DNA of 64,000 nt from an uncultured Alphaproteobacteria bacterium (GTDB lineage Bacteria; Pseudomonadota; Alphaproteobacteria; RF32; CAG-239). The notes below the pieces were generated by a model. That model was given only the letters and a program-made list of their open reading frames with translations, did not search any database and was not told the origin of the DNA. The DNA is taken from NCBI GenBank assembly GCA_944391705.1, contig CALXUN010000002.1, positions 8,279-72,278 on the forward strand, given 5' to 3'. Both the position numbers and the translations under genes were made by a program. This document shows, one piece after another, positions 17,745-37,582 of the stretch. Positions within the stretch are counted from its first letter, which is position 1. Each line of letters starts with the position of its first letter.

Positions 17745-20363
17745 TTACATATTGAAGTTATAATTTCCTTCGTATGCCAGCCAATAAAGCTTTTCGATTT
17801 CCTCAATCAGCGGATAACGCGGGTTGGTACCGGTGCACTGGTCATCAAAGGCCAGTGTCGGCAGCGTTTTCATCGCTTCGGTGAAATCTTCTTTGGAAAT
17901 ACCCCATTCCTTAATGGAAAGCGGAATATTCAGTTCTTTTTTCAACCCTTCAATGGCTTTAATCAGGTTATCGACCTTTTCATCGTCGGTTTTGCCTTTA
18001 AGCCCGATTCCCTCGGCAAAAGCAGCATAAGCGGCTTTGGCGTTCGGATAACGGTACTGCGGGAAAGCACATTGCTTAACCGGGCAATCCGTTGCATTAT
18101 AGCGGATAACCTGCGAAATCAGCAACGCATTGGCAAAGCCGTGCGGAATATGGAAAGCAGCACCCAGTTTGTGCGCCATGGAATGACAAACGCCTAAGAA
18201 AGCATTGGCAAATGCCATACCGGCAATGGTCGCCGCATGATGAACATGCTCACGGGCCTTGGCATCTCCTGTCTTATAAGAAGTCGGCAGATAGTTCAAA
18301 ATCAAACGGCCGGCTTCAACCGAAAGCCCGCGGGTATATTCAGTTGCCATAGATGACACATACGATTCCAAAGCATGCGTCATCACGTCAATACCCGATG
18401 CCGCACACAAACCTTTCGGCATGGTCAAGACCAAATCGGTATCAACAATTGCCATGGAAGGTGTCAAAGCATAATCGGCAATCGCATATTTAATACCGGT
18501 TGAATCATCGGTAATAATCGAAAACGGCGTCACTTCCGAACCGGTACCCGAAGTTGTCGGGATAGCCACCAACTCGGCTTTCTGCCCCAATTGCGGAAAT
18601 TCAAAAATACGTTTGCGGATATCCATAAAGCGCATCGCCAGATCTTCAAATTTTAATTCCGGATGTTCATACATAATCCACAAAATTTTGGCTGCGTCAA
18701 TCGGCGAACCGCCGCCCAAAGCAATCAGCACATCAGGGGCAAAAGAATCAACCATGGCCTTGGCCTTGTTAATCGTTGTCAAATCCGGATCCGGACGCAC
18801 GTCACTGAAAATTTGGCATTGAATGCCTAAAGGTTCCAGAATATCGGTTACTTTGCGGGTATAGCCTAAATCAAACAGCGATTTATCGGTAATGATAAAG
18901 GCGCGTTTTTTGCCTTCCAGCTCTTTTAAGGCAAAGGAAAGGCTTCCCGGCTTGAAATAAACTTTCGGCGGAACTTTGAACCACAACATATTTTCTTCTC
19001 TTTTTGCAACATTTTTAATATTCATCAGATGTTTTACTCCCACATTTTCACTAACCGAGTTTCCGCCCCATGAGCCGCAGCCCAAAGTCAACGACGGTTC
19101 AAGCCTGAAGTTGTAAATATCGCCGATAGCACCCTGCGATGACGGACAGTTAATCATCACGCGGCCGGTATGCAAACGGTGACCGAAAGTTTTAATTCGT
19201 TCATCATTGGCAGGATCGGTATAAAGAACCGAAGTATGTCCGTTGCCGCCGAATGTGACCAGCTCTTTGGCACGCTTGGTTGCCGCTTCAAAGTCATCAA
19301 CTTTGTACATAGCCAGAACCGGCGAAAGTTTTTCGGCCGAAAACGGTTCTTCTTTGCCGACTTTGGAAACTTCCGCAATCAGGACTTTGGTTTCGGGAGC
19401 CACTTTAATATCAGCCATAGCGGCAATTGTTGCGGCTTTCTGGCCGACGATGCCTGAATTTAACTTGCCGTCAATCATAATAACTTTGGCAAGCTTTTCT
19501 TTTTCTTTGGCCGACAAAATATAAGCACCGCGTTTTAAGAATTCAGCCTTAACGGCATCATAAATTTCTTTAACAACCACGACGGATTGTTCGGAAGCGC
19601 AAATCATGCCGTTATCAAAAGTCTTGGACATCAAAATTGAGCTGACAGCCATCTCAATATCTGCCGTCTCATCAATCACAGCCGGTGTATTGCCTGCGCC
19701 CACGCCCAACGCCGGTTTTCCGGAAGAATAAGCGGATTTCACCATTCCCGGACCACCGGTTGCCAAAATAATGTCAACTTTCGGATGCTGCATCAGATAT
19801 TGCGTACGCAAAATCGTCGGCTCGTCAATCCAGCCGATAATATCTTCCGGCGCACCGGCTTTAACAGCTTCTTCAAGCATAATACGCGCTGTTTCAACCG
19901 TGCATTTTTTGGCCCGCGGATGCGGTGAAAAGATGATACCATTGCGGGTTTTCAAAGCAATCAAAGTCTTAAAAATCGCCGTTGAAGTCGGATTGGTTGT
20001 CGGTATAACGCCGGCAATCACACCCAAAGGTTCGGCCATTTTAATCAGACCATTGTCCTTATCTTCTTCAATAATCCCACAGGTTTTAGTATGTTTGAAT
20101 TTATTATAAATATATTCCGAGGCAAAATGGTTTTTAATAACCTTGTCTTCGACAACGCCCATACCGGTTTCTTCTACTGCCATTTTAGCCAGCGGAATTC
20201 TCAAAGAACTCATTTTCAAAGCCACGCGGCGGAAAATATAATCCACCTGTTCTTGAGAATACTCTGCAAATTTCTTTTGCGCCTGGCTGACTTTTTCAAC
20301 CAATTCATCAATATATTTTTTTTCAGCCGTTTCATCAACGGCCTTAACTTCTTTCTGAGCCAT
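17745..20363 (-). CDS. adhE: Bifunctional acetaldehyde-CoA/alcohol dehydrogenase
   Basis: 872 aa. N-terminal ALDH domain and C-terminal Fe-ADH domain with GGGSPIDAAK and the His-rich iron site. Confidence 0.95.
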   Translation of the reverse strand: MAQKEVKAVDETAEKKYIDELVEKVSQAQKKFAEYSQEQVDYIFRRVALKMSSLRIPLAKMAVEETGMGVVEDKVIKNHFASEYIYNKFKHTKTCGIIEEDKDNGLIKMAEPLGVIAGVIPTTNPTSTAIFKTLIALKTRNGIIFSPHPRAKKCTVETARIMLEEAVKAGAPEDIIGWIDEPTILRTQYLMQHPKVDIILATGGPGMVKSAYSSGKPALGVGAGNTPAVIDETADIEMAVSSILMSKTFDNGMICASEQSVVVVKEIYDAVKAEFLKRGAYILSAKEKEKLAKVIMIDGKLNSGIVGQKAATIAAMADIKVAPETKVLIAEVSKVGKEEPFSAEKLSPVLAMYKVDDFEAATKRAKELVTFGGNGHTSVLYTDPANDERIKTFGHRLHTGRVMINCPSSQGAIGDIYNFRLEPSLTLGCGSWGGNSVSENVGVKHLMNIKNVAKREENMLWFKVPPKVYFKPGSLSFALKELEGKKRAFIITDKSLFDLGYTRKVTDILEPLGIQCQIFSDVRPDPDLTTINKAKAMVDSFAPDVLIALGGGSPIDAAKILWIMYEHPELKFEDLAMRFMDIRKRIFEFPQLGQKAELVAIPTTSGTGSEVTPFSIITDDSTGIKYAIADYALTPSMAIVDTDLVLTMPKGLCAASGIDVMTHALESYVSSMATEYTRGLSVEAGRLILNYLPTSYKTGDAKAREHVHHAATIAGMAFANAFLGVCHSMAHKLGAAFHIPHGFANALLISQVIRYNATDCPVKQCAFPQYRYPNAKAAYAAFAEGIGLKGKTDDEKVDNLIKAIEGLKKELNIPLSIKEWGISKEDFTEAMKTLPTLAFDDQCTGTNPRYPLIEEIEKLYWLAYEGNYNFNM

Positions 20364-20716
20364 AATCGCTTTTCTCCATAATTAAATTTTCCTGCGCCAT
20401 ATAATGACAGCACCTTATAAAATACACAACCTAAATTATAGGACAATCCAATCAACAATTATTTCTAAATTGTCGTAAACACAAACGCCATAACACAGAT
20501 TCCTTAAAAAAATGGTATACAGACACCTGATTAAATCAAAACAAAAATCTTCCTGATTTCCCGGAGCAAGACCTGTTTAAAGAGAGCAAAAAAACGTACC
20601 GGAAGTATGCTCTCCTTTGCGCCAAAAGAATCTTTAAAGTTGCAAAAAAAAAAACGGTTTAGAATGACGCGTAAATCTTATTTGTTTTGTAATTTTTGTA
20701 ACTTTGGAGATTTTTT

Positions 20717-21553
20717 ATGAAACCTTGGTTTTCTTTATTCTTACGCAGAATGTTGCAGATGCGCCGTAACTTTCTGACGACGTGTACAACATTAGGTACA
20801 CGAGGAGAAAAGTTGCAAGCAGATGCGACTTTTTCCGGAAGAAACGAACGACCGCAGAACCGGACAGATGCGAAGCCTTGTTTGAGCGACGTGTACAAAA
20901 TGAGTACACGAGCGAAAAGAAGGCAAACAGATGTTCGGTTATCCGGTCGTTCTATGGTGGAGATGTTGGGAGTTTTAGCAATTATTGGAGTTTTAAGTGT
21001 TGGCGTTATCTCGGGCTATTCCAAAGCCATGATGAAGTATAAACTCAACCGACAAACAGAACAAATCGGTAGTATTCTAGATTATGTTCTGATTAATTCT
21101 GATAAGTTTAATCACGATACTTCCATAGCATTTATTTCATTATTATATAAATTGAATGCCATTCCGGTGGAAATGATAAGGGAAGATTGGATCTACGGCT
21201 ATGCTTATGACATATTCGGCAATAAAGTATATCTGAATGACAATAATGATGGAAATAATATTTATTATAGTTTATCCGTTTCCATCAGTAAATACTCGCG
21301 CGAAATTTGTATGAATTTATACCAAATGGCCAAGCTCCGTTCTGCCAATTTATGGCAAACCGTGTTTAATAAAGACACCCAAAGTTCTTCCATGGAACAC
21401 ACCAACAGAGTATGGGGCGATTCTTATTGCAGCAAATCAGTTACTTGCCTCAAAGATTTAAGCTTAACACAAATGGACGAACTTTGTTCAGCATGTGACG
21501 ATTCTCAAACCTATTGTAGATTTTATATTTTATGGGGTCGGATCAAACCTTAA
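20717..21553 (+). CDS. Prepilin-like protein, paralog 2, with a duplicated leader module
   Basis: Identical mature N-terminus G|RSMVEMLGVLAIIGVLSVGVISGYSKAMMKYKLN. The 77-aa leader contains a tandem duplication of the leader module. Divergent C-terminal domain with a Cys cluster (CSACDDSQTYC). Confidence 0.6.
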   Translation: MKPWFSLFLRRMLQMRRNFLTTCTTLGTRGEKLQADATFSGRNERPQNRTDAKPCLSDVYKMSTRAKRRQTDVRLSGRSMVEMLGVLAIIGVLSVGVISGYSKAMMKYKLNRQTEQIGSILDYVLINSDKFNHDTSIAFISLLYKLNAIPVEMIREDWIYGYAYDIFGNKVYLNDNNDGNNIYYSLSVSISKYSREICMNLYQMAKLRSANLWQTVFNKDTQSSSMEHTNRVWGDSYCSKSVTCLKDLSLTQMDELCSACDDSQTYCRFYILWGRIKP

Positions 21554-21661
21554 AATTAAACATGAATATCACACAAGTCCATTTATAAATTTTGCAAAAT
21601 TGCAACCTCGCTTCTTATCAAGTCATTAAAAAAACAAAGACATTCTTACGTGTTATACCAA

Positions 21662-22125
21662 CCACCATCCGGTCAAGCCGCTTAAAAAGTTCGGATAACG
21701 AGTCAGATACGACGAACCCCTTTTTACATAAGAAGCACAAAGAATTAGACAGTTACGAAGAAAGCTTTCTTGTACCGCCAAACCAACGCCTGATTAAGCC
21801 GCTAAAAAAACAACAACCGCCCAAACACAAAGTCCGCCACCATTCCGTCAAGCCGCTTAAAAAGTTCGGATAACGAGTCAGATACGCCCCCTTTTTACAT
21901 AAGAAGTTCAGAGAATTAAACTGATACGAAGAAAGCTTTCTTGCACCGCCAAACTAACGCCTGATTAAGCCGCTAAAAAAAACAACAACCGCCCGGACAC
22001 AAAGTCCGCCACCATTCCGTCAAGCCGCTTAAAAAGTTCGGATAACGAGTCAGATACGACGAACCCCTTTTTACGCAGTGTACCCAAAATAGTACATAAG
22101 TAAAAAGGGGTTCAAGTAGATGACC
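21662..22125. repeat. Tandem direct repeat of about 175 bp, about 2.4 copies, ending in a hairpin
   Basis: Units begin at 21662, 21837 and 22009 (CCACCATYCCGTCAAGCCGCTTAAAAAGTTCGGATAACGAGTCAGATACG...). The last unit carries a 21-nt insertion containing GTGTAC-N8-GTACAT inside the hairpin AACCCCTTTTTAC...GTAAAAAGGGGTT. Confidence 0.85.
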
Positions 22126-22139
22126 GTTAGACGAACTTT

Positions 22140-23150
22140 TTAGAAGTGGTCGTCACATTTTTTAATCAACTCTTCAATATTTTCCGGCGGCCAACCCGGG
22201 GTTTCCATACCAAGATGAATGCCCATCTTAGCCAGAACTTCTTTGATTTCATTCAAAGACTTGCGGCCAAAGTTCGGTGTGCGAAGCATTTCGGCTTCGG
22301 TCTTCTGAACCAAATCGCCGATATAGACGATGTTATCATTTTTAAGGCAGTTTGCTGAACGAACGGAAAGTTCAAGCTCTTCAACCTTCTTCAAAAGATT
22401 ACGATTGAACGGCAGTTCTTCCTTAACATCTTCAACTTCATTTTCCGGTTCATCAAAGTTAATGAACGGTTTGAGCTGATCTTGCAAAATACGAGCCGCA
22501 TAAGCAACTGCATCTTCCGGAGAAACAACACCGTTGGTTTCAACAGTCAATGTCAGTTTATCGTAATCGGTAATCTGTCCGACACGGGTATTGTCTACTT
22601 TGTAAGAAACTTTTTTAACCGGTGAATAAATTGCATCAACCGCAATCAACCCAATCGGAGCATCTGCCGGTTTGTTCTGATAAGCCGGAACATAACCTTT
22701 ACCGGTATCCACGGTTAATTCCATGGAAATTTTTGCACCGGCATCCAGATTGCAGATAACATGATCCGGATTCATGATTTCGACATCATGACCGGTCTCA
22801 ATCATCGCAGCCGTTACCGTGCACGGACCTTCGGCTTTCAAAGTCATCATTTTCTGACCTTCGCTGTGAACGGCAACAGCCAGCCCTTTAACATTCAGGA
22901 CGATATCCGTCACGTCTTCGCGGACACCCGGAATAACTGAAAATTCATGCAGCACGCCGTCAATTTTGATAGCCGTTACCGCGCCACCCTGTAAAGATGA
23001 AAGCAAAACTCTGCGCAGAGCATTGCCCAAAGTCAGACCAAAACCTCTCTCCAGGGGTTCTACCACTATCTTAGCCTTATTTCCGCCTTCGCCGGAAGTA
23101 ACTTCTAAATTAGTTGGTTTAATAAGTTCTTGCCAATTCTTCTGAATCAC
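22140..23150 (-). CDS. rpoA: DNA-directed RNA polymerase alpha subunit
   Basis: 336 aa. NTD and CTD are typical of RpoA. Lies downstream of rpsK in the alpha operon. Confidence 0.95.
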
Positions 23151-23247
23151 CGGTATACCCTCTTTTCTAAGTTATATATGCATATATATTTATAAAAAAA
23201 ACATTGAAGCGGCGGAGATAAAAAACCTCCGCCAGCCAAAACTTATT

Positions 23248-23640
23248 TTAAACGCGACGTCTTTTTCTCAAACGGCAGCCGTTATGTGGAATCGGGGTAA
23301 CATCACGAATTGATGTGATTGTAAACCCGACAACCTGCAATGCTCTGATTGCCGATTCTCTGCCCGAACCCGGACCTTTGACTTCGACTTCCAAAGTTTT
23401 CATACCGTTTTCCTGGGCTTTTCTGCCGGCTTCTTCAGCGGCAACCTGTGCGGCATACGGGGTGGATTTACGAGAACCTTTAAAACCCTGTGCACCGGCT
23501 GTCGACCAGGCAACTGTGTTGCCCTGGGCATCGGTAATTGTTACTCTGGTATTGTTAAACGTAGAATTCACGTGGGCAACGCCGGAAGTGATATTCTTTT
23601 TTTCTTTTTTCTTAACACGTTGTGTTACTGCTTTAGCCAT
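23248..23640 (-). CDS. rpsK: 30S ribosomal protein S11
   Basis: Conserved S11 sequence and operon position. Confidence 0.95.
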
Positions 23641-23651
23641 TGCAACCTCGC

Positions 23652-24020
23652 TTACTTCTTCTTATTCGCAACTGTCTTGCGTTTACCTTTACGGGTACGG
23701 GCATTTTGCTTGGTGCTTTGTCCGCGTACCGGTAAACCTTTACGATGCCTTAAACCTCTGTAACATCCAAGATCCATCAATCTTTTGATGTTAACGCCAA
23801 CTTCGCGACGCAGTTCACCTTCCACCAGATAATCACGATCAATTACTTCGCGGATTTTGGCAACTTCTTCATCATTTAAGTCCTGCACGCGACGGTCAAC
23901 AGAAATTCCCGATTTTGCACAAATGTCTTGAGCAGTTTTTCTTCCGATGCCGAAAATATACGTCAGTGCGATTTCTATTCTCTTGGCCGTCGGAATATTT
24001 ACGCCAGCTATACGAGCCAA
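23652..24020 (-). CDS. rpsM: 30S ribosomal protein S13
   Basis: [10 protein letters not shown] start and conserved S13 sequence. Confidence 0.95.
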
Positions 24021-24181
24021 ATTAACTCTCCATTTTCAATAAAATTAAAACATTTAAAAAGTTGATCACCACTTTTCAAAATTAAGCGGATTATATTCGA
24101 ATAATTCTTAGAGTCAAGAGCGTTTTTAACAAAAAATTCATTTTTTTCAAAAACAACCTCTGACCTGACTTTTCCGGCCGC

Positions 24182-24871
24182 TTATTCGGCAGCCTCATTG
24201 CCTTCCAACCCGAGAACCCGGGCAATTTTATGCGCCGTTGCCTCAATCGTGCCGGTTCCGTCAACACAGCTGAGAAGCCCCTTTTTCTCAAAGTACGGAA
24301 TCGTCGGATATGTCAACGAACGGTAATTAACAAGCCTGTTCTGCACCGTTGTCCGGTTATCATCCGCCCGGCGCGAAAATTCCGTGCCGCCGCAGACATC
24401 GCACACACCATATACTTTGGGCTTTTGAAATTTATCATGATAACCCTGTCCGCATTTCATACAGGTATAACGCCCCAAAATACGTTCCATAATGATTTCA
24501 TCCGGCACCTGAATTTCAACCACACGGTCAAGTTTCAAGCCCTTTTCCTGCAAAATACCTTCCAAAGCCTCTGCCTGCGGCAAGGTCCTTGGAAAACCGT
24601 CCAAAATAAAACCATTTTTGCAGTCACTTTCATCAATACGGTTGGAAACCATCTGAATAATCATTTCATCGGTGGCAAATTCACCGCGGTCAAGAGCCGC
24701 TTTTAAATCCCGCCCCAAAGGCGTATCTTTGGCAGCCTCACCCCGCAGCATTTCACCGGTCGACAAATGGCAGATATGCGCTTTTTCTTTCAAAATCCGC
24801 GCCTGCGTACCTTTACCGCAGCCCGGTGCTCCGGTAAAAACCACATGCAACCCTTGTCTGTTTTTATCCAT
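24182..24871 (-). CDS. adk: Adenylate kinase (long form with zinc-lid Cys4)
   Basis: P-loop GAPGCGKGTQ and lid CMKCGQGYH...CDVCG. Confidence 0.9.
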   Translation of the reverse strand: MDKNRQGLHVVFTGAPGCGKGTQARILKEKAHICHLSTGEMLRGEAAKDTPLGRDLKAALDRGEFATDEMIIQMVSNRIDESDCKNGFILDGFPRTLPQAEALEGILQEKGLKLDRVVEIQVPDEIIMERILGRYTCMKCGQGYHDKFQKPKVYGVCDVCGGTEFSRRADDNRTTVQNRLVNYRSLTYPTIPYFEKKGLLSCVDGTGTIEATAHKIARVLGLEGNEAAE

Positions 24872-24873
24872 GG

Positions 24874-26223
24874 TTATTTTCTTTTCTTATGGACGAGCGC
24901 TGCTTTTTTAATCAGCCCTTCATATTGATAGGCAATCAGATGTGACTGAACCTGCGTCACAAAATCCATCGTCACCTGTACCACGATGAGCAAAGTTGTG
25001 CCGCCCAAAACAAACGGAACGGATAATTTCGAAATCAGAATTTCCGGCAAAATGCACAAAGCCGTCAAATAAGCCGCACCCAGAACCGTTAAACGGGTGA
25101 TGACGTAATCTAAGTATTCGGCCGTATTTTTACCCGGACGGATACCGGCGATAAAACCGCCGTGCTTTTTCAAATTATCTGCCGTTTCTTCAGGATTAAA
25201 CACCACAGCCGTATAGAAAAAGGCAAAAAAGATAATCAAAAATGCATACAAAGCCAGATACAGCGGCTGACCGTGCCCGAGCCACTGGCTCATAGTCTGT
25301 GCCCAAGACGGACCGTTTTGAGCCGATAAATTGGCAATGGTTACCGGTAGCAACAGCAAAGAACTGGCAAAAATCGGCGGGATAACCCCGGTCGGGTTGA
25401 TTTTAAGCGGCAGGTGCGAACTTTCAGCCGCCGTCATCCGCATACCCATTTGGCGCTTCGGATACTGAATGACGATTTTACGCTGGGCGCGTTCAACAAA
25501 GACAATGATGTAAATCAATGCCAGAGCCATCACCAACAACATCAGGATAACCCCGAGCGACATTGAACCGATGCGGCCCAATTCAAACGTCTGCGCCAAA
25601 GCATTCGGGATGTTGGCAATAATACCGACGGTAATAATCAAAGACGAACCGTTGCCTACCCCGCGGGAAGTAATCTGATCACCGAGCCAGACCACAAACA
25701 TTGTACCGCCCACCAAAGAAACGATGGTCGTAAATTTGAACACAAAACTCGGAATAACCACCACCGATGCACCGGCGCCGGCACTCATGCTTTCCAGACC
25801 GACAGCGATACCGTAACCCTGGATAATCGTGATAAAGACCGTTAAAATCTTCGTATAGTGCGTTACCTTGCGGTGCCCGGCTTCACCCTCTTTCTTCAAC
25901 GCTGCCAATGACGGAATAACCGACTGACCGAGTTGAATGATAATGGAAGCAGAAATGTAAGGAAAGATGTTTAAGGCAAAAATCGTCATACGCGACAAAG
26001 CACCGCCGGAAAACATATTAAACATACCCAATATGCCGCCCGAATGCTGGGAAAAAATCTCCGACAAAGCTCTGGCGTCAATTCCCGGCAGCGGGATAAA
26101 CGTGCCCAAGCGGAACACAATCAGCGCCAAAATCGTAAACCATAACCTTCTTTTCAGTTCGTCAGCTTTGCTAAATGCGGACATATCCATATTTGCCGCC
26201 ATTTTTTCTGCCAATGATACCAT
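24874..26223 (-). CDS. secY: Preprotein translocase subunit SecY
   Basis: 10-TM SecY with the conserved N-terminal IPLPGID region. Confidence 0.95.
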   Translation of the reverse strand: MVSLAEKMAANMDMSAFSKADELKRRLWFTILALIVFRLGTFIPLPGIDARALSEIFSQHSGGILGMFNMFSGGALSRMTIFALNIFPYISASIIIQLGQSVIPSLAALKKEGEAGHRKVTHYTKILTVFITIIQGYGIAVGLESMSAGAGASVVVIPSFVFKFTTIVSLVGGTMFVVWLGDQITSRGVGNGSSLIITVGIIANIPNALAQTFELGRIGSMSLGVILMLLVMALALIYIIVFVERAQRKIVIQYPKRQMGMRMTAAESSHLPLKINPTGVIPPIFASSLLLLPVTIANLSAQNGPSWAQTMSQWLGHGQPLYLALYAFLIIFFAFFYTAVVFNPEETADNLKKHGGFIAGIRPGKNTAEYLDYVITRLTVLGAAYLTALCILPEILISKLSVPFVLGGTTLLIVVQVTMDFVTQVQSHLIAYQYEGLIKKAALVHKKRK

Positions 26224-26372
26224 TTCTTCTTCCTTAAATTAATTTTAAAACACACATAAGAAGGGCGTTAAAACCCTTTTTGCATACTCTAATACACAAA
26301 TTAAAAATTTATTGCAACAATTTTCTCTTTATCCTCAGTTTTTTACCGGAAGCTTACCAAGCGCTGTTGAGA

Positions 26373-26891
26373 CTATCCGTTTTCCGCCTGTTTGCCATGT
26401 TCCTCAGCCAAACGGACAAGTTTGGGGTCAGCACCGATAATCCGCCAACGTCTCACACCGGGCATAATCATATAATCCAAGGCGTTGCCTAAAAAAATAA
26501 AATGATACCACCCTTTCGGAATAACAAAATGGCGGCAGCCTTCCAAAAAGAGTTTGCCGACAGTAACCCCGGGGGCAATCTCAAATCCGGAAGCACCACT
26601 TAAATTAACCTCATCATATTTCAAGGCCGGAACCCGGGCATTGCGTGACGAACTTAAAATCAGACTGTTGATTTTGGCCTCCTCATCAATATGAAATTCA
26701 TCAGCCTGGTTAAGAAAAATCCGGCCGTATTTGCCTTTGGGAATATTGGCGCGATAGGTATTGTTTAAAATAAGGACATTGATTTTGACGCCGGGTTCAA
26801 TGTAAAAGCCTTTGGCACGACTTAAATCCACCCTTTCATAAGAGCCTTTTTCAATCGTCACGCCAAAAGTATCCTGCAGACTGAGCTTCAT
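26373..26891 (-). CDS. Hypothetical protein with an internal tandem repeat of about 60 aa, inserted between rplO and secY
   Basis: Repeat ERVDLSRAKGFYIEPGVKINVLILNNTYRANIPKGKYGRIFLNQ versus DEVNLSGASGFEIAPGVTVGKLFLEGCRHFVIPKGWYHFIFLGN. No known domain recognised. Confidence 0.5.
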   Translation of the reverse strand: MKLSLQDTFGVTIEKGSYERVDLSRAKGFYIEPGVKINVLILNNTYRANIPKGKYGRIFLNQADEFHIDEEAKINSLILSSSRNARVPALKYDEVNLSGASGFEIAPGVTVGKLFLEGCRHFVIPKGWYHFIFLGNALDYMIMPGVRRWRIIGADPKLVRLAEEHGKQAENG

Positions 26892-27409
26892 TTCCTTTCT
26901 CCCGCACGTCTGACATTATCAGAATATAAAAAAAACACCTGTTCGTCAATAATTTTATTAATTTTTAATCCGTCTCACCGCAAAGCAAGACGGATTAAAA
27001 GTTTTCCATTTACATACCGGATTTTTTATTTTGGCACAACGGCTTTCGGGGCTTCCGTTTGAGAGGTTGGAGCCGTTTGAAGCTGAGTTTGTTCTTCACT
27101 TTCCTCTTCTGCCTCAAGCTCCCCTTCTTCCGGCTCGTATTGTTTCTCGTCAATTAATTTGACCGAAAACCATTGCCGTCGCCAAAGGTGCCGAGTATAT
27201 CCCCGCAAACCCCGAATTGCTGGAAACGTATTTTGCTTTTTATTTCAATGTATCGTTATGGGGCGGCTTGTTGGCAATCGTACTGGCATTTTTGTATATA
27301 ATAAAACAACACCTTGCCAAAACCAAAACTTCATAAAACTAAGAGTACACTGTTCGCTGACAGTCTTTAGCAACACTTATCCTTAAAAAAAACAAGGATA
27401 TGCAACACA

Positions 27410-27447
27410 AAAAAGCGGAAGTTTTTCTTCCGCCTTTTTTATTGTAT
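27410..27447. terminator. Bidirectional intrinsic terminator immediately downstream of rplO
   Basis: GCGGAAG-TTTTT-CTTCCGC with T-runs on both strands. Confidence 0.7.
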
Positions 27448-27465
27448 CTGCCTGTAAGCTTTCGC

Positions 27466-27921
27466 TTAGGCAATAACGTTAACTTTGCCGCCGGCTTTTT
27501 CAACAGCAGCAACAGCAGCTTTGGAAGCTGAATTAACCGAAATGTTAACACTGCTGGTGATAGCACCGCGGGCAAGCAAACGAACACCGTCCATTTTCTT
27601 GGAAATAACACCGGACTTCAACAAAGCCTCAACATCAATGGCATCGGCAGTCAATTTGCCGGCATCAATGGCTTTTTGAATAGTGTCCAGATTAACAACC
27701 GCAAAATGAAGTGCAAACGGGTTTTTAAAACCACGTTTCGGCAAACGACGGTATATCGGCATCTGTCCGCCTTCAAAACCGTACTTGGCACCGCCGGAAC
27801 GGGATTTCTGACCTTTAACGCCGCGGCCGGCCGTTTTGCCTTTACCGCTGCCGATACCGCGTCCGACACGGATACGGTCTTTGGTCGCTCCCGGATTATT
27901 TTTCAATTCATTAAGTTTCAT
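27466..27921 (-). CDS. rplO: 50S ribosomal protein L15
   Basis: Conserved L15 sequence with the [15 protein letters not shown] region. Confidence 0.95.
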
Positions 27922-28079
27922 TGTTCTTCACCTAACTAATTTTTAATTTTACTATAAAAAGTCTTGTCATAAACAGGTTTCGATAAGCAGGCCTGCTGTT
28001 GTCCAAACTGTAAGCGCCGTATACAAATAGATACACAAGCAATCAAATCAGACAACTTGAAGCCTGCTTTATAAAACCG

Positions 28080-28262
28080 TTATTCCTCGACTTTAACGAG
28101 GTGGCTCACCTTCTTAATCATGCCGCGAACAGCCGGTGTATCTTCCAGCACAGCGGTACGATTCATCTTGTTTAAGCCTAAGCCGATTAAAGTTGCTCTC
28201 TGGTCTTTCGGTTTGCCGATCGGGCTTGCGATCTGAGTAACTTTTAATGTCTTCTTAGCCAT
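28080..28262 (-). CDS. rpmD: 50S ribosomal protein L30
   Basis: 60 aa with conserved L30 sequence. Confidence 0.9.
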
Positions 28263-28265
28263 GGA

Positions 28266-28826
28266 TTAAGCCTCCTCTTTTTCCATTTTTACATTTGAAG
28301 AATTTTCGCGGCGGCTGACGATATCCCCGACTTTTTTACCGCGTTTGGCGGCAATCATGCGCGGAGAATTAATCGACTGCAGGGCATTGAAAGTTGCTTT
28401 AATCATATTGTACGGATTGTTTGAACCCAATGATTTGGCAACCACATCCTGCACGCCCAAAACTTCAAACACGGCACGCATCGGACCGCCGGCAATAACA
28501 CCGGTACCGGCCGGAGCTGTTCTCAAAATAACTTTTCCGGCGCCGAAACGGCCTTCAACATCATGGTGAAGCGTTCTGCCTTCACGCAGCGGAATGCGAA
28601 CCATATTTTTCTTTGCCTCGTTGGTCGCTTTAACAATGGCTTCCGGAACTTCGGCGGCTTTGCCGGAACCAAATCCGACACGCCCCTTCTGGTCGCCGAC
28701 GACAACGACTGCCGCAAAAGACATCGTGCGGCCGCCTTTAACCGTCTTGGCAACACGGTTGACGTGAACCAGTTTTTCGACCAATTCTTCGGTTTTTTCT
28801 TTTTTATTATGACGATCTACTGCCAT
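28266..28826 (-). CDS. rpsE: 30S ribosomal protein S5
   Basis: Conserved S5 sequence. Confidence 0.95.
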
Positions 28827-28836
28827 CTTACTTCTC

Positions 28837-29199
28837 CTAGAATTTCAATCCGGCTGCACGGGCAGCATCGGCCAAAGCTTTTACACGGCCATGATAGATA
28901 TAACCGCCTCTGTCAAAGACAACTTCGCTTACACCTGACTTGACTGCTCTTTCAGCAATTAATTTACCGATGAAGCCGGCGGCTTCAACCGTAGATGACT
29001 TTTTGATGCTGTCACGGACTTCTTTATCCAAAGTGGAAGCAGAAGCAACCGTTGCACCTTTGGCATCGTCAATAATCTGCGCGTAGATGTGCTTGCCGCT
29101 GCGGAAAACGGACAATCTCAGCTTTCCGTTGGCGGCTTTTTTCAAAGCGGTTCTGACGCGCGCCTTTCTTTTTTCAAACAATTTTCTTGGTGTATTCAT
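28837..29199 (-). CDS. rplR: 50S ribosomal protein L18
   Basis: Conserved L18 sequence. Confidence 0.95.
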
Positions 29200-29213
29200 C
29201 TTAAGCCTATCCC

Positions 29214-29750
29214 TTACTTCTTCTTGCCTTCTTTACGACGTACGTATTCGCCTTCATACTTGACACCTTTACCTTTATACGGTTCCGGCTTTCTGTACTT
29301 GCGAATTTCCGCAGCAACCTGTCCGACAAGTTGTTTATCCACACCAAAAACTTTAATCTGAGTCGGTGATTCGCAGGAAATCTTAATACCTTCCGGAGCC
29401 GGAAAGTTAACATCATGCGAAAAGCCTAAAGAAAGAACGAGCTTGTTGCCTTCCGTACGGGCTTTGTAACCGACGCCGACCAATTCCAAATTCTTAGTGA
29501 AGCCTTCGCTGACACCTTTTACCAGAGTATTGATGTTAGCGCGGGTTGTTCCCCACAAAGCGCGAGCCGTCTGGCTGCCTGACAACGGGGAAACGACAAT
29601 CTTATTGTCTTCCAGTTTGGCTGCAACATGACTATCGTCAAAAGTGCAGCTGAGTTCACCTAATTTTCCTTTAATGGTAACAACATTGCCTTCAATGGCT
29701 GCTGTTACGCCAGCCGGGATAATAACCGGATATTTACCTATTCTTGACAT
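29214..29750 (-). CDS. rplF: 50S ribosomal protein L6
   Basis: Conserved L6 sequence. Confidence 0.95.
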
Positions 29751-29762
29751 CCGTTTTCTCCC

Positions 29763-30161
29763 TTAAAATACCTGACACAAAATTTCACCGCCGACATTGG
29801 CCTTGCGGGCATCATTGTCGCTCATCACACCCTGCGGGGTGGAAACAATCGAAATACCCAGACCGTTGTAAACTCTCGGCAGGTCCTTAACGCTTGAATA
29901 AACACGACGACCCGGCGTTGAGACGCGGTAAATTTCAGTTATAACCGAAGCACCTTCATGGTACTTTAATTTAATAACGAGTTCATCAATACCCGGCTTA
30001 ACATTGCGCTTTTCATAGCCTTCAATGTAGCCTTCTTTTTTCAGAACTTCCAAAACATTTTCACGCAGGCGAGAGGCCGGTGATACAACATCACTTTTCT
30101 TCGCTCTTTGTGCGTTTCTAATGCGTGTGAGCATATCGCCCAAAGGATCAGTCATTGACAT
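29763..30161 (-). CDS. rpsH: 30S ribosomal protein S8
   Basis: Conserved S8 sequence. Confidence 0.95.
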
Positions 30162-30173
30162 AATATCTCCTCC

Positions 30174-30479
30174 TTACCAGCTTGATTTTACCAAACCCGG
30201 AATTTCACCGAAACTGGCCATGTTTCTTAATTCCACACGGCTCAAACCGAACTTCCGGTAATAACTACGTGAGCGGCCAGTCAGCTTGCAGCGGTTTCTA
30301 ACTCTGATTTTGGCAGAGTTGCGCGGCAGGGCGGCCAACTTCAAAGTCGCCTGGAATCTTTCTTCCGGAGAAGCATTCTTATCCATAACGACATTCTTTA
30401 ATTTCTGACGGCGATTAGCATACTTCTCGGCCATCTTTACTCTTTTCAAGTTTCTATATACTGAACTTGTTTTCGACAT
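30174..30479 (-). CDS. rpsN: 30S ribosomal protein S14 (long form)
   Basis: 101 aa with conserved S14 sequence. Confidence 0.95.
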   Translation of the reverse strand: MSKTSSVYRNLKRVKMAEKYANRRQKLKNVVMDKNASPEERFQATLKLAALPRNSAKIRVRNRCKLTGRSRSYYRKFGLSRVELRNMASFGEIPGLVKSSW

Positions 30480-30493
30480 CGTAAAATCTCCGC

Positions 30494-31033
30494 TTATTTC
30501 TTGTAAGGCAGGTTAAATGAAGTGAGCAAAAACTTTGCTTCTTCATCTGTTTTGGCCGAGGTGCAAATAACAATGTCCATTCCGCGGACGTCTTCAACTT
30601 TTTCATAGTTGATTTCCGGGAAAATAACCTGTTCTTTAATGCCAAAAGCAAAATTGCCTTTGCCGTCAAAGTTTTTGCCGGATATGCCGTGGAAGTCCCT
30701 GATGCGCGGCAAAGCCATATTAATAAGTCTTTCCAGAAACTCATACATTCTGGTCGAACGCAGTGTAACTTTGCAGCCAATCGGCATACCTTCTCTGAGC
30801 TTAAACGTTGCAATAGATTTGCGGGCCGTTGTCATAACCGGCTTCTGTCCGGCAATCAAAGCCAGCTCTTCCATCGCATTGTTGAGCTTTTTCTTGTCGG
30901 TAACGGCATCGCCGATACCCATGTTCAGTACAATTTTCGTCAGCTTCGGAATCTCATGTGGGTTCTTGTAACCGAATTTTTCCACAAGAGATTTCTTTAT
31001 GACGTCATTGTAAAGTTTTTCAAAATTTGTCAT
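30494..31033 (-). CDS. rplE: 50S ribosomal protein L5
   Basis: Conserved L5 sequence. Confidence 0.95.
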
Positions 31034-31044
31034 AAAATTTTCTC

Positions 31045-31359
31045 CTATTTATCGATTACTTCACCGGATTTACGTGCAACCCGCACTTTAGTCCCTTTGT
31101 CATCCTTGTAACCGATACGGGAAGCCTTGCCTTCCGAGGTTACAATCGCGACGTTTGAAACGTGAATGGCTGCTTCTTTGGTTACAATGCCGCCCGGAGT
31201 GGTCTGGCTGGGCTTGGTGTGTCTTTTAACCAGATTGACACCTTGAACAACCACCTTACTCTCTTTGGGCATTGCTTTCAAAACTTCGCCGGTTTTACCT
31301 TTGTCATCGCCAGACAAGATAATAACTTTATCACCTTTTTTAATTTTCATTTTAGGCAT
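31045..31359 (-). CDS. rplX: 50S ribosomal protein L24
   Basis: KOW motif and conserved L24 sequence. Confidence 0.95.
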
Positions 31360-31727
31360 TACAATACCTCCGGTGCTAATGAAATGATTTTCATAAATTT
31401 CTTTGCGCGCAGTTCTCTTGTGACAGGGCCGAAGATACGGGTACCAATCGGCTCGCCGTCTTTATTAATCAGAACTGCCGCATTGCTGTCAAAACGGATA
31501 ACGCTGCCGTCTTTGCGACGGATATCGCTGGCGGTTCTGACGATGACGGCTTTGCAGACATCACCTTTCTTCACGCGCCCTTTGGGCATCGCTTCTTTAA
31601 TTGAAACAACAATAACATCACCTACGGAAGCATGCATTCTCTTGGACCCGCCAAGAACTTTAATGCACTGCACCTGACGTGCTCCAGAATTATCTGCAAC
31701 ATCTAGGTTGGTTTGCATCTGTATCAT
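31359..31727 (-). CDS. rplN: 50S ribosomal protein L14
   Basis: Conserved L14 sequence. Confidence 0.95.
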
Positions 31728-31745
31728 TTTCTAATTCCTTCTTTT

Positions 31746-31982
31746 CTAGGCGTTATCAACTAATACAGTCCAACTTTTCGTTTTTGAATAAGGTTTGGAT
31801 TCAATAATCGAAACCTTATCGCCGACTTTGAACTGGTTATTTTCGTCGTGAGCAGCATATTTTTTGCTCTTCTTCACGAACTTTTTGTAAACGGGATGCA
31901 TAACCTGACGCTCAACGCTGACCACGACGGTTTTATCCTGTTTATCGCTAACAACAACACCTTGAAGAATTCTTTTAGGCAT
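31746..31982 (-). CDS. rpsQ: 30S ribosomal protein S17
   Basis: Start set at the internal ATG at 31982 ([14 protein letters not shown]), preceded by AGGAGA. The ORF-track start at 32015 would overlap rpmC. Confidence 0.9.
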
Positions 31983-31992
31983 ATCTTTTCTC

Positions 31993-32190
31993 CTAACTAT
32001 TCTTCTTGCGCTCACTTAAGAGCGTGTTGATTTTGGCTATTTCACGGCGGACTTTACGGATTTGTGCCGTATTCGTCAGCTGACCGGTTGACTGCTGAAT
32101 GCGCAAGTTAAACTGTTCCTTTTTATTTTCGGTCAGTTTTGCCTCTAATTCATCAATCGTCATAGCGCGCAAATCTTTTGTTTTAACCAT
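31993..32190 (-). CDS. rpmC: 50S ribosomal protein L29
   Basis: 65 aa with conserved L29 sequence. Confidence 0.9.
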
Positions 32191-32618
32191 TATGCTTCTC
32201 CTTTATCCGAATTCAAGCGCTGAACAAATTTGCTTTTAACCGGCAATTTTGCAGCACCAAGGGCAAATGCACGGCGGGCGGTATCTTCATCAATGCCTTC
32301 CGCTTCAAACATAATGCGACCCGGTTTAACTCTTGCAACCCAGAATTCGACAGCACCTTTACCTTTACCCATACGAACCTCGGCCGGTTTGTCCGACACC
32401 GGAACGTCAGGGAAGATTCTGATCCATAAGCGGCCGGCTCTTTTCATCTCACGGGTAATTGCGCGACGGGCTGCCTCAATCTGGCGGGCCGTAACGCGTT
32501 CCGGAGACAAAGCCTTCAGGCCGTATGTACCGAAACTCAATGTTGATCCGCCTTTGGCCAGGCCGTGAATACGACCCTTATGCTGTTTGCGGAACTTCAT
32601 ACGTTTTGGACTTAACAT
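32190..32618 (-). CDS. rplP: 50S ribosomal protein L16
   Basis: Conserved L16 sequence. Confidence 0.95.
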
Positions 32619-32636
32619 CTTATTCTAACCTCTTTA

Positions 32637-33308
32637 TTATTTCTGTTCAGCCAGCTTCTTGTCCTGAGCCATCGGATCATGAGCCATAATTTCGCCTTTA
32701 TAGATCCAGACTTTAACGCCGCAGGCACCATAAGTGGTATGAGCCGTTGAGGTAGCATAATCAATGTCTGCACGCAGCGTATGCAAAGGAACGCGTCCTT
32801 CGCGGTAAGATTCGGTACGGGCAATTTCGGCACCGCCCAAACGACCGCTGCAGCAAACCTTGATGCCTTCCGCGCCCAAACGAAGCGCAGACTGCATAAC
32901 CCTCTTCATAGCCCGGCGGAAAGCAACACGTCTTTCCAACTGCTGGGCAACCGAATCAGCCACAAGTTTTGCATCCAGTTCAGGTTTTCTGACTTCCAGA
33001 ATGTTCAACTGAACTTCAGAAGATGTCAGTTTCTGAATTTCTTTTCTCAAATTCTCGATATCCTGACCCTTTTTGCCGATAACAACACCGGGTCTGGCCG
33101 AATGAATGGTAACTCTGGCTTTTTTGGCCGGACGCTCAATAACGATGCGGCTGACCCCTGCCTGAGCCAATTTTTCTTTCAAGAATTCTTTAATTTTTAA
33201 ATCTTCGTGGAGATAGTCGGTAAACTTGTCATCATCAGCATACCAACGAGAGTCCCAGGTGCGGTTAACGCCCAAACGAAGACCTGTAGGATTTACTTTC
33301 TGTCCCAT
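32637..33308 (-). CDS. rpsC: 30S ribosomal protein S3
   Basis: KH domain and conserved S3 sequence. Confidence 0.95.
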
Positions 33309-33313
33309 TTAAC

Positions 33314-33688
33314 TTACTCCCCACGCTCGGTGACGACGACAGTCAGGCTGGAAAACGGTTTTAAAACCCGTGCCCCGCGCCCGCGACCGCGTGCGTGCAT
33401 ACGTTTCATAACTAAGCCTTTTCCGACAAACGCTTCGCTGACAACGAGTTTGTCAATATTCAGGCTGTGATTGTTTTCGGCATTGGCAATTGCAGATTGC
33501 AGCAATCCCAACGCAACTTTGGCAATTCTCTTCTTAGAGAAAGAGAGCTCAGCAACAGCTTTTTCGGCCGACAGACCACGGATAGACTGGGCAACCAAGT
33601 TCAGTTTACGCGGGCTGGTGCGGATAGAGCGGCAAACGGCCATCGCCTGATTTTGAGCTACTCTTCTTGCATCTTTAGTTTTTCCCAT
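33314..33688 (-). CDS. rplV: 50S ribosomal protein L22
   Basis: Conserved L22 sequence. Confidence 0.95.
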
Positions 33689-33690
33689 AA

Positions 33691-33969
33691 TTAACCTCTC
33701 TTCGCTGTCTTGTCTGCGGCGTGCCCGTAGAAAGTACGGGTCGGCGCGAATTCACCAAACTTATGGCCGACCATATCCTCGGTAACCAGTACCGGAATAA
33801 ATTTGTGGCCGTTGTGAACGCCGAACGTTAAACCGACGAACTGCGGCAACATTGTCGAACGACGTGACCAGATTTTAATCACTTCATTACGCCCTGAAGC
33901 TCTGGCTGCATCAGCCTTCTTAAGAAGATAACCGTCAACAAAAGGTCCTTTCCATACGGAACGTGTCAT
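33691..33969 (-). CDS. rpsS: 30S ribosomal protein S19
   Basis: Conserved S19 sequence. Confidence 0.95.
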
Positions 33970-33984
33970 TAGTTTTTCTCCTTA

Positions 33985-34818
33985 TTACTTCTTGTTATCA
34001 TGACGGGATCTCATAATAAAGCGATCCGTCTTCTTGTTAGAACGAGTCTTGGCGCCCTTGGTCGGCTTACCCCACGGCGTAACCGGATGACGGCCGCCCG
34101 AGGTTCTGCCTTCACCACCACCGTGCGGGTGGTCAACCGGGTTCATTGCAACACCGCGGACAACCGGTCTGATACCCATCCAGCGGGAACGGCCGGCCTT
34201 GCCGAGCGACTTGTTTTGATTATCCGGATTGGAAACGGCACCAACCGTTGCCAGACATTCCTCACGAACGATTCTTAATTCGCCGGAGCTTAATTTTAAC
34301 TGGGCATAACCGGCATCTTTACCGACAACCTGAGCATAGCAGCCTGCAGAACGGGCCAGCTGGCCGCCCTTGCCTGCCTTCATCTCAACGTTGTGGACAA
34401 TCGTACCGACCGGCATGCTCTTCAAAGGCATAGCATTACCCGGCTTAATGTCAGCTTTTGCCGAAGCAATCACTTTATCGCCGGCTTTCAGTCTTTGCGG
34501 AGCCAGAATATAAGCCAGCGTACCGTCTTCATACTTGATTAAAGCAATAAAAGATGTACGGTTCGGATCATATTCAATCCGTTCAACTGTTGCCTCGCAG
34601 TCGAATTTATTGCGTTTGAAGTCGATAACTCTCAGCTTGCGTTTATGACCGCCGCCGATTCTCCGACTTGTAACATGTCCAAAATTATCACGCCCACCGG
34701 TTTTGGTCAGACCGACCGTCAACGTCTTTTCCGGTGCACCTTTGTACAAATCGCTTCTGTCAACGATAATCAGCTGACGAAGCCCCGGAGATGTGGGCTT
34801 AAATGTTTTCAAAGCCAT
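33985..34818 (-). CDS. rplB: 50S ribosomal protein L2
   Basis: Conserved L2 sequence with the GGGHKRKLR region. Confidence 0.95.
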
Positions 34819-35778: not shown

Positions 35779-36507
35779 TTATGCATTTTCAGCCGGAGCA
35801 GCTTCTTCGGCTTTAACTGCAACAGGTTCATCAACTTTCTTTAATCCGGCAGGCATCGGCAGCTGGACGGAAGCTGTTTTCTTAACGGCATCGGTTACCC
35901 GAACCCAGGCGTTTTCACTGCCCGGAACGGCACCTTTAACCATAATCAGCCCCTTGGCTGCATCAACGGCAACAACCTTAAGATTCTGAACGGTAACCCG
36001 TTTGGCACCCATGTGGCCGGCCATCTTTTTGCCTTTAAACACTTTACCCGGATCCTGTCTTTGACCGGTAGAACCGTGTGAACGGTGTGAAACCGAAACG
36101 CCGTGCGTGGCTTCCAGACCGGCAAAGTTGTGGCGCTTCATAACGCCGGCAAAACCTTTACCGATTGAAGTAGCACAAACATCAACATACTGTCCCGGCA
36201 CAAAATGTTCGGCCGACAGTTCGTTTCCAACCGAAAGCAGGCAGTCTTCAGAAACTCTGAATTCACCCAGCTTCTTTTTCGGTTCAACATTAGCTTTTGC
36301 GAAATGTCCTTTCATAGGTTTGGATACATTCTTGGCCTTAACAGCGCCCGTTCCCAGTTGAACGGCTGTATATCCATTCTTCTCCGCAGTTTTGACAGCA
36401 ATAACTTTCAGCCCGTCTACGCTTAAAACCGTAACCGGAACATGAACGCCGTTCGCTTCAAAAATGCGGGACATTCCTAATTTTTTTGCGATCAGACCTG
36501 TACGCAT
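35779..36507 (-). CDS. rplC: 50S ribosomal protein L3
   Basis: Conserved L3 sequence. Confidence 0.95.
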
Positions 36508-36574
36508 TATTATTTTTTCCTTTTCTAATTGGTTGACGCCTCATATTTCAAAACGCCAACATTAAAATCATTAA

Positions 36575-36886
36575 TTACAATTTAATTTCGACATTAACAC
36601 CGGCGGCCAAATCAAGCTTCATCAAAGCATCAACCGTTTGCGGCGTCGGGTCGACAATATCCAGAAGTCTTTTGTGGGTACGGATTTCAAACTGCTCGCG
36701 GGATTTTTTATTAACGTGCGGCGAACGGTTTACCGTAAACTTTTCGATTCTGGTCGGCAGAGGAATGGGTCCTCTTACGTTTGCCCCTGTTCTTTTGGCC
36801 GTATGCACAATTTCTTTGGTAGAAAGATCGAGCAGACGATGGTCAAAAGCCTTGAGGCGAATTCTGATATTTTGGGTTTCCATCAT
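36575..36886 (-). CDS. rpsJ: 30S ribosomal protein S10
   Basis: Conserved S10 sequence. First gene of the cluster. Confidence 0.95.
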
Positions 36887-37225
36887 TTTTTTATTTTTCC
36901 CTATAACTAAACGGCAAAAGCCACCTTAACGGAACCCTGCCATTTAACTTGTTAAAACTCAAACAAAACGTTCTATAGCAACGCCTTGCCTTATATTTTA
37001 TATTTAACATCACCGGAACTTGTTAAAGGCTCCGAACAAACGTTGTGAGGGGCTTATAACATAGCAAAACAAACATTGCAAGTAAAAAATGCACAAAAAA
37101 TCAAAAAAAAGTTAACGCCGCCAACCCTTGTCCAGACTCTGTTTGAGTCATTTCCCCGATTCGCGGCATTAACCATTTTGAGTCTAAATTGCCTATTTTG
37201 AGTCCAGCGGCATGCCTGTTTCATT

Positions 37226-37582
37226 TTACCTGGAATAACTCATATCCTTTTTAGTACTGCGCTGATTTTCTTTTTCGATATACACTCCCAGTTTTCCTTG
37301 AGCTTTTTTAAGAATTTCCGCACCCATTTGCTGTTTCGGATTTTGACCTTCCGCTGAAATATTCAGACTTTTAAGATTCTGGGCAAAATTCTCCCCTTCC
37401 TTCCACGGAGCCTGACAGGCCAAAACCTTTTCTCCCTTTTCGTTATAAAGTTCGGCATGAACAGAGGAAACCATATTTTCAGAAGTTAGCGAGCCATGCG
37501 GACCAAATGAATTATGGCGTTTGAAAACCGTCCCTTCTGATTCTTTATAAAACTTAGCCGTTACCGCCCCTGTCTGCTCCAC
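37226..37582 (-). CDS. Hypothetical protein upstream of the S10 operon; start uncertain
   Basis: The ORF-track start at 37684 is a TTG inside an AT-rich promoter-like tract. The complex part of the sequence begins near GIAVEQTGAV, so a downstream GTG or ATT start is possible. No domain recognised. Confidence 0.3.
   Translation of the reverse strand: MEQTGAVTAKFYKESEGTVFKRHNSFGPHGSLTSENMVSSVHAELYNEKGEKVLACQAPWKEGENFAQNLKSLNISAEGQNPKQQMGAEILKKAQGKLGVYIEKENQRSTKKDMSYSR

Follow-up and report, generated by a model that had tools for sequence, protein, structure and literature searches.

A putative accessory-gene slot between rplO and secY, with a clade-specific gene for a predicted beta-solenoid protein, in uncultured gut Alphaproteobacteria

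Gene layout of the rplO–secY interval

In Escherichia coli, rplO (ribosomal protein L15) and secY are adjacent and co-transcribed, and the L15–SecY adjacency is among the most stable gene orders in prokaryotes. This analysis concerns the interval that separates the two genes in a 64,000-nt stretch of DNA from an uncultured alphaproteobacterium (contig CALXUN010000002.1; the whole stretch is referred to here as the window) and, within that interval, an open reading frame (ORF) termed ORF172. On the minus strand of the window the gene order is rplE-rpsN-rpsH-rplF-rplR-rpsE-rpmD-rplO, a gap, and then secY-adk-rpsM-rpsK-rpoA (Table 1). The gap measures 1,242 nt from the ORF coordinates, in agreement with an earlier prediction made from the sequence of the window (the original prediction), which had placed about 1.2 kb at this junction.

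In the canonical arrangement of E. coli, the spc operon (rplN ... rpmD-rplO-secY) is followed by the alpha operon (rpsM-rpsK-rpsD-rpoA-rplQ), and the one-strand orders rplE-...-rplO and secY-adk-rpsM-rpsK-rpoA are kept in the window. However, the canonical rplO and secY genes are adjacent with no terminator between them, whereas the window has a terminator after rplO. Moreover, secY in the window clade has its own predicted promoter and leader; rplO and secY lie 1.2 kb apart in the window and, in relatives, anywhere from 188 nt apart to unlinked; and the window has no rplQ after rpoA.

Table 1. Features in and around the rplO–secY interval of the window
Feature	Position	Strand	Remarks
rplO (ribosomal protein L15), last gene of the spc-type cluster	27466–27921	-	Pfam Ribosomal_L27A, 6e-20
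Two-way intrinsic terminator (predicted)	27410–27447 (stem 27415–27433)	both	A6, stem GCGGAAG, 5-nt loop, CTTCCGC, T6; starts 19 nt past the rplO stop codon
Decayed 3' remnant of a membrane-protein gene convergent with rplO	27163–27339	+	Last 54 codons, no usable start; tblastn
ORF60, 60-aa acidic ORF	27026–27208	-	TTG start; not a gene
Window-specific spacer	26957–27169	-	Contains a hairpin with 16-bp arms (26960–27003); no blastn match in relatives
Sigma-70-type promoter-like site of ORF172	26921–26949	-	TTGACG, 17 nt, TATTCT; Shine-Dalgarno GGGAGAAAGGA before the ATG
ORF172, predicted clade-specific basic cytoplasmic beta-solenoid repeat protein with a C-terminal helix	26373–26891	-	172 aa
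Predicted autonomous secY promoter and leader	26224–26338	-	Kept upstream of secY in about 80 genomes
Box of the secY upstream region	26338–26326	-	CTGAGGATAAAGA / TTGAGGATAAAGA; conserved in about 80 genomes
secY promoter (predicted)	-35 at 26317–26312; -10 at 26294–26289	-	TTGCAA, 17-nt spacer, TATTAG; hexamers and spacing conserved in about 80 genomes
secY leader (predicted)	Hairpin 26278–26261; Shine-Dalgarno 26235–26231	-	GC-rich hairpin, T-rich tract, Shine-Dalgarno AAGGA
secY, first gene of the downstream unit secY-adk-rpsM-rpsK-rpoA	24874–26223	-	Pfam SecY, 4e-107; ORF order

Genomes compared

Relatives were obtained by a one-genome-per-species scan with the SecY sequence of the window, which yielded 80 loci with SecY identities of 83–99%. 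All 80 belong to genomes assembled from gut metagenomes (human, ruminant, rabbit, horse and chicken), with record titles including 'uncultured Alphaproteobacteria', 'Azospirillum sp.' and 'Candidatus Scatocola faecigallinarum'; a few are evidently mis-binned. We take the clade to be the gut clade named RF32 in GTDB. A scan of metagenome contigs for ORF172 added two loci of the same type (L084 and L085). Counts of rplO–secY linkage rest on 69 informative species-level genomes, and linkage was scored as lost where no rplO was found within at least 3 kb upstream of secY.

Predicted transcription signals of rplO and secY

A strong bidirectional terminator directly after rplO and a probable promoter before secY had been proposed for the window, and candidates for both were recovered and proved to be widespread. 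The rplO hairpin folds well on both strands, at -18.5 kcal/mol in the minus-strand RNA (z -6.1) and -14.3 kcal/mol in the plus-strand RNA (z -4.9), with none of 200 shuffles as good. Of 27 relatives examined with rplO in view, 26 have a terminator of the same build, consisting of an A-tract, a GC hairpin and a T-tract, 20–40 nt past the rplO stop codon. From genome to genome the stems are unrelated in sequence, which indicates that the function of the terminator is conserved and not its sequence.

Upstream of secY, about 115 nt are conserved in about 80 genomes irrespective of the gene that lies further upstream. Between the two promoter hexamers the sequence of the spacer varies and its length is constant at 17 nt. 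The hairpin of the leader shows compensatory changes, with more than 20 different stem cores that remain complementary. Of 70 distinct leaders, 90% fold at -6 kcal/mol or better in the first 40 nt, with a mean of -9.0 kcal/mol against -4.8 for shuffled sequences that preserve mononucleotide composition only. RNAalifold applied to a MAFFT alignment of 50 leaders recovered no structure; the covarying stems are misaligned in it, and hence the leaders were folded sequence by sequence and their stems catalogued. No Rfam family matches the leader, and an Rfam E-value scan of positions 20000–34000 was empty in the rplO–secY gap. The hairpin might act as an attenuator or as a stabilising stem-loop at the 5' end.

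Variability of the interval among relatives

The rplO and secY genes are adjacent (188–375 nt apart) in 11 of the 69 informative species, are separated by inserts of 0.4–4.8 kb in 25 and have lost their linkage in 33, such that linkage is interrupted or lost in 58 of the 69. For four of the 33 unlinked genomes, rplO was found downstream on the opposite strand. The upstream neighbours of secY in the unlinked genomes are lepA and many unrelated genes, some of them alaS-, ileS- or secE-nusG-like as judged by sequence only. Genomes with the short spacing already carry both the terminator and the secY promoter, which indicates that the transcriptional split predates any insertion. The suggestion that this lineage has remodelled the boundaries of its spc and alpha operons thus gains from the presence of the terminator and the secY promoter in about 80 species, from the interrupted or lost linkage and from the absence of rplQ after rpoA in the window. 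These comparisons support remodelled operon boundaries as a trait of the whole lineage, not one peculiar to the window genome.

Among the cargo of the interval in relatives are Zeta_toxin genes, a 100-aa XRE-like gene, genes for membrane proteins, type IV pilin-like genes and two unnamed families repeated in tandem. An epsilon/zeta-like toxin–antitoxin cassette lies between rplO and ORF172 in L004 (4001–5183; Zeta_toxin, 6.5e-44, preceded by a 143-aa ORF) and is truncated in L003 (3908–4556). No counterpart of Zeta_toxin was found in the slot of the window, where the stretch 26957–27169 stands in its place. The type IV pilin-like genes, with the N-terminus GRSMVEMLGVLAIIGVL and a weak N_methyl match, recur in 12 genomes spread over several subclades, where they directly precede ORF172 or the secY promoter (L007 4601–5287, L008, L009, L035/36/38/43, L058, L077 and L078–L080). 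In L052, L053, L059 and L081, tandem arrays of an approximately 200-aa multi-pass membrane protein and a 250–295-aa soluble protein, neither with a Pfam match, lie upstream of secY in a layout that recalls toxin/immunity arrays.

Conservation and context of ORF172

The original prediction regarded ORF172 as a foreign gene inserted before secY and proposed a synteny comparison with related genomes. When this comparison was run, close relatives were found to carry the same gene at the same position. ORF172 is present in every examined genome whose SecY is at least 93.3% identical to that of the window, and in no other examined genome. Carriers are L001, L003–L013 and the metagenome contigs L084 and L085, and the nearest genome without the gene is L073, with a SecY identity of 92.65%. 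Context is visible for 15 copies, and in every one the gene precedes secY; in 13 it does so directly, with its stop codon 7–35 nt from the secY box. It stays with secY both where rplO and cargo are upstream (L003–L008) and where lepA replaces rplO (L009–L013).

Twelve full-length orthologs are free of frameshifts and stop codons; the L002 copy is short by exactly one 20-residue coil, and the L001 copy is frameshifted, in a contig of 3.8x coverage. The pairwise ratio of nonsynonymous to synonymous substitution rates (dN/dS) is 0.04–0.15, with dS ranging from 0.25 to >1.5, and the GC content (44.7%) and third-position GC content (GC3, 46%) are typical of the genome. Judged by these substitution patterns, ORF172 is a real gene under strong purifying selection. 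As all close relatives carry it upstream of secY, under purifying selection and with native composition, the comparison indicates that ORF172 is ancestral to one genus-level clade, contrary to the foreign insertion first proposed. It is absent from sister clades and so would have been gained once at the base of the clade.

Upstream of ORF172, a promoter-like site of TTGACG/TTGACC and, after 17 nt, a TATATT/TATTAT box, about 35 nt before the ATG, was found in 14 of the 15 copies examined, including that of the window. No terminator was found between ORF172 and the secY promoter.

Two genomes from separate subgroups, L006 (4602–5870) and L008 (3587–5866), have an unrelated gene, of 422 or 759 aa, inserted between ORF172 and the secY promoter; by implication it was either inserted twice or passed on by recombination. 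The inserted gene has no Pfam match and a weak match to phrog_3921.

Structure and homology of the ORF172 protein

ORF172 had been described as a protein with two internal repeats of about 60 aa and of no recognisable family. An internal repeat is indeed present, but its size and number differ from that description: the period is 37 aa, in about 3.5 copies, each formed by one coil of 18 residues and one of 19. The BLOSUM self-score at period 37 is 1.27, compared with a maximum of -0.10 in 300 shuffles, and two coil types, YxxVxLSxAxGFxIxPGV and KIxxLILxxxxxAxIPxGK, alternate. The absence of a recognisable family was borne out, with no family returned by Pfam-A hmmscan at E <=1 or by NCBIfam at E <=10, no PADLOC or PHROGs match and nothing meaningful from a PDB sequence profile search. 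An AlphaFold2 model, built on only five sequences, shows a beta-solenoid of about eight coils with a helix cap at residues 156–171 (predicted local distance difference test, pLDDT, 88.7; predicted template modelling score, pTM, 0.84). No signal peptide or transmembrane segment was detected, the N-terminus (MKLSLQDTFGVTIEKGSYERVD) has no hydrophobic core and the computed isoelectric point (pI) is 7.7–9.7 across 13 family members. From the sequence and the model, we infer a soluble and basic protein that folds into a beta-solenoid of eight coils and ends in a helix.

A word-indexed search of 5.8 billion proteins returned four fragments only, and an exhaustive phmmer search of 1.8 billion representatives returned four matches, one of which is a distant relative, P0007. 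This protein has coils of the ORF172 type and a C-terminal I-x-G-x-x-P-helix cap. A search with P0007 alone found only itself, and a profile of the orthologs, P0007 and its neighbour found no new member. P0007 and its tandem neighbour (284 and 208 aa) are paralogs encoded at 385–1978 of L083, a 2.3-kb contig from run SRR24653929, and are the only distant homologs of ORF172 among the 1.8 billion representatives. The gene beside them was read as hemolysin-III-like.

Known solenoid proteins were compared with the model. Leucine-rich repeat (LRR) proteins (Pfam LRR clan) form a solenoid with one parallel beta-strand per repeat, as the ORF172 model does. However, their repeats have 20–30 residues and the pattern LxxLxLxxN/CxL, whereas the coils of ORF172 have 18 or 19 residues and no LRR profile match. 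Pentapeptide-repeat proteins are built of four A(D/N)LXX units per 20-residue coil; ORF172 differs in coil length and has no Pfam Pentapeptide match at E <=1, and the aligned structures (AlbG, MfpA, Qnr and EfsQnr) are 4–9% identical to it. The Qnr and MfpA proteins are DNA mimics with an acidic surface, whereas ORF172 is basic (pI of about 9), which argues against DNA mimicry of the Qnr kind. Literature searches found no described rplO/secY split, and their sole yield was a preprint, of interest for an LRR protein. This protein, FlrP of Vibrio (PDB 8Z5U), is a polar flagellar LRR protein with a signal peptide (M1-A19) that is periplasmic and acts on the flagellar rod (bioRxiv 10.64898/2025.12.04.692373). 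Unlike FlrP, which reaches the periplasm with a Sec signal peptide, ORF172 has no signal peptide; nor does it have flagellar gene context, and the PDB sequence profile search with ORF172 does not return FlrP at E values up to 10.

Decayed cargo in the window

DNA comparison aligned positions 28000–27170 of the window with L003, covering rplO, the terminator and the stretch that follows. The membrane-protein remnant in this stretch matches residues 92–145 of an intact 158-aa gene of L005 (4139–4615) with 93% aa identity (tblastn, E 1e-28). At the DNA level, the remnant is 92–97% identical to L003, L004 and L005, compared with only 82–87% for rplO. Its identity is 97% to L005 and 93% to L004, against 87% and 84% for rplO and 84% and 82% for the ORF172 block (Fisher P 2e-4 to 4e-3; P 2e-4 for the remnant against rplO in L005). 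Because the remnant is more alike between species than rplO and the ORF172 block, a recent exchange of cargo between species is suggested. By its predicted action on both strands, the terminator would have served the convergent membrane-protein gene as well as rplO.

Where the window has the spacer 26957–27169, L003–L005 hold 0.9–1.3 kb of zeta/XRE cargo. The hairpin in the spacer folds at -21.4 kcal/mol (z -6.6). A 14-nt direct repeat (27147–27160 and 26943–26956; AAATTAATTGACGA and AAAATTATTGACGA on the minus strand) flanks the spacer, and one of its copies shares bases with the -35 hexamer predicted for ORF172. The repeat may be a scar left by deletion or recombination, or may have arisen by chance. 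From 26956 on, sharing with relatives resumes through the ORF172 promoter, ORF172, the secY leader and secY.

The interval had also been noted to contain a dubious acidic ORF of 60 aa. Such an ORF is present, but it is not a gene: it starts with TTG, no homolog was found by tblastn over 82 related loci, codons 1–13 are antisense to the membrane-gene remnant and the remainder lies in the window-only spacer. Its acidic tail might derive from the 3' part of the XRE-like gene seen in relatives, an idea for which a weak 12-aa match (E 0.12) is the sole support.

Discussion

The findings as a whole are probably explained by insulated transcription units, a tolerated slot between them and the fixation of ORF172 in that slot at the base of one clade. 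The spc-type cluster would end at the rplO terminator, and the secY-adk(-rpsM-rpsK-rpoA) unit would start at its own promoter and hairpin leader. With the two units insulated in this way, the stretch from terminator to promoter would be a tolerated slot. As the comparison of genomes shows, accessory genes are gained, swapped and lost there, and in about half of the species rearrangements have broken the link between rplO and secY. The slot of the window contains decayed cargo (the remnant, the non-coding spacer and the spurious ORF60) and one intact gene, ORF172, which the comparison shows to have been fixed at the base of the genus-level clade and to have stayed immediately upstream of the secY promoter since then. 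ORF172 appears to be transcribed from its own sigma-70-type promoter and, without a terminator, its transcript probably reads on into secY. Read-through of this kind would give the secY unit a second, upstream promoter. From the modelled fold, the likeliest role of ORF172 is that of a rigid scaffold or adaptor that binds other proteins.

Several points weigh against this explanation. The promoters, the terminator and the read-through are all predictions. The 67-nt secY leader of the window itself is not more stable than shuffled sequences (z -0.56) and, as this leader taken singly is unexceptional, the case for the hairpin rests on conservation across genomes. The scaffold role is read from the fold class only, and Foldseek searches with the ORF172 model found no significant structural neighbour in PDB or BFVD (viral models), with no match at E <=0.001. 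No recombinase, tRNA or tmRNA gene or convincing att-like repeat was seen in the slot, and homologous recombination through the conserved flanks is an assumption as to its mechanism.

ORF172 might instead be a recent foreign gene that broke a continuous rplO–secY operon in the window genome. The family is absent from sister clades (SecY 83–92.7% identical) and nearly absent from the 5.8 billion proteins and 1.8 billion representatives, and with a distant paralog pair on the unrelated contig L083 an external source is conceivable. We nevertheless consider this very unlikely, given that the same gene precedes secY under purifying selection in all examined genomes with SecY at least 93.3% identical, that its GC and GC3 values are native and that genomes with an empty spacer of 190–200 nt have the terminator and the secY promoter, which implies that the operon was split before any insertion. 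An assembly or binning artefact in the gap, or a chance ORF, is almost certainly not the explanation: the window is probably from a metagenome-assembled genome, as its closest relatives all are, but the same order of rplO ... ORF172-secY recurs in independent assemblies from different samples and hosts, the 12 intact orthologs lack stop codons with dS up to >1, and the structure model is confident.

A different reason for the adjacency would be functional coupling of ORF172 to SecY or the translation genes downstream: the protein might, for instance, be a cytoplasmic adaptor at the translocon or the ribosome, and selection rather than history would keep the genes together. Such coupling would fit a basic, soluble repeat scaffold whose gene keeps its place before secY while the genes further upstream change, from rplO and cargo in L003–L008 to lepA in L009–L013, and co-transcription is likely with no terminator before the secY promoter. 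However, the 422- or 759-aa gene in L006 and L008 indicates that direct adjacency is dispensable, shared ancestry alone can explain the linkage in so shallow a clade (SecY at least 93%), relatives without ORF172 have the same secY leader, and structure alignment and the PDB sequence profile search found no similarity to known SecY partners. Coupling therefore seems unlikely, and it is likewise doubtful that ORF172 founds a new family of short-coil (18/19-residue) cytoplasmic beta-solenoids co-transcribed and working with the secY unit, a reading on which, more broadly, the terminator–promoter spacer in a ribosomal string would be a landing pad for accessory-gene exchange between species. Alternatively, ORF172 could be the most persistent cassette among accessory cargo of the conflict type, such as an immunity or antitoxin-like protein, an anti-phage component or a secreted effector, given the zeta toxin, XRE-like and pilin-like genes and repeated arrays of membrane and other unnamed proteins in the slot of relatives. 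This is quite improbable for a gene that has no PADLOC or PHROGs match, stays in place as the cassettes around it are replaced and lacks a constant partner; a dN/dS this low is unusual for genes in an arms race, its basic pI speaks against mimicry of the Qnr/MfpA type and it has no signal peptide.

On the explanation by insulated units and a tolerated slot, the interval resembles chromosomal hot spots for accessory genes between core genes. As in these, one interval between two highly conserved core genes holds cargo that differs among species (a toxin–antitoxin module and pilin genes included), and one cargo fragment is more similar between species than its flanks. It differs from them in lying inside a ribosomal-protein/secY string, normally among the most stable of gene orders, and in that no integrase, tRNA or att repeats were found. 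A whole clade of uncultured gut Alphaproteobacteria would thus have insulated rplO and secY by a terminator and a dedicated secY promoter and leader, as predicted here, and then used the interval repeatedly for accessory genes and rearrangements. This would make the locus a natural test case for transcriptional insulation freeing gene order from constraint. The locus also offers a conserved, testable secY leader element and an orphan protein family, well folded by prediction, with a clear evolutionary origin. Known kinds of element are combined here (a ribosomal-protein operon that is split, a hot spot for accessory genes and an orphan protein of beta-solenoid type) and current understanding is not overturned; the relevance for operon evolution in uncultured gut Alphaproteobacteria is moderate.

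Other features of the window

The absence of rplQ after rpoA, also part of the original prediction, was confirmed by tblastn with E. coli L17, which found no rplQ anywhere in the 64-kb window (best E 0.001, on an unrelated stretch). The same search placed rplQ downstream of rpoA in 20 related loci (E 1e-20 to 1e-39), and L007 has an extra spacer or insert between the two genes. Downstream of rpoA in the window are a 278-aa ORF on the opposite strand (20717–21553) without a Pfam match and then an adhE-type gene (17745–20363). No terminator-like site was found after rpoA (21554–22139).

A candidate for the alpha operon leader (Alpha_RBS, RF00140) lies before rpsM in the window, at a sub-threshold score (23988–24082, minus strand, just before and over the rpsM start; 30.6 bits, E 8e-4, gathering score 38). 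By this match, the adk–rpsM junction may still have an autoregulatory leader of the S4 type. Upstream of the S10-type cluster (rplC-like gene at 35779–36507), the region 36507–39276 contains a 152-aa ORF without a Pfam match and a Methyltransf_4 (trmB-like) gene, not tuf/fusA, and the str–S10 junction may also be broken in the window genome.

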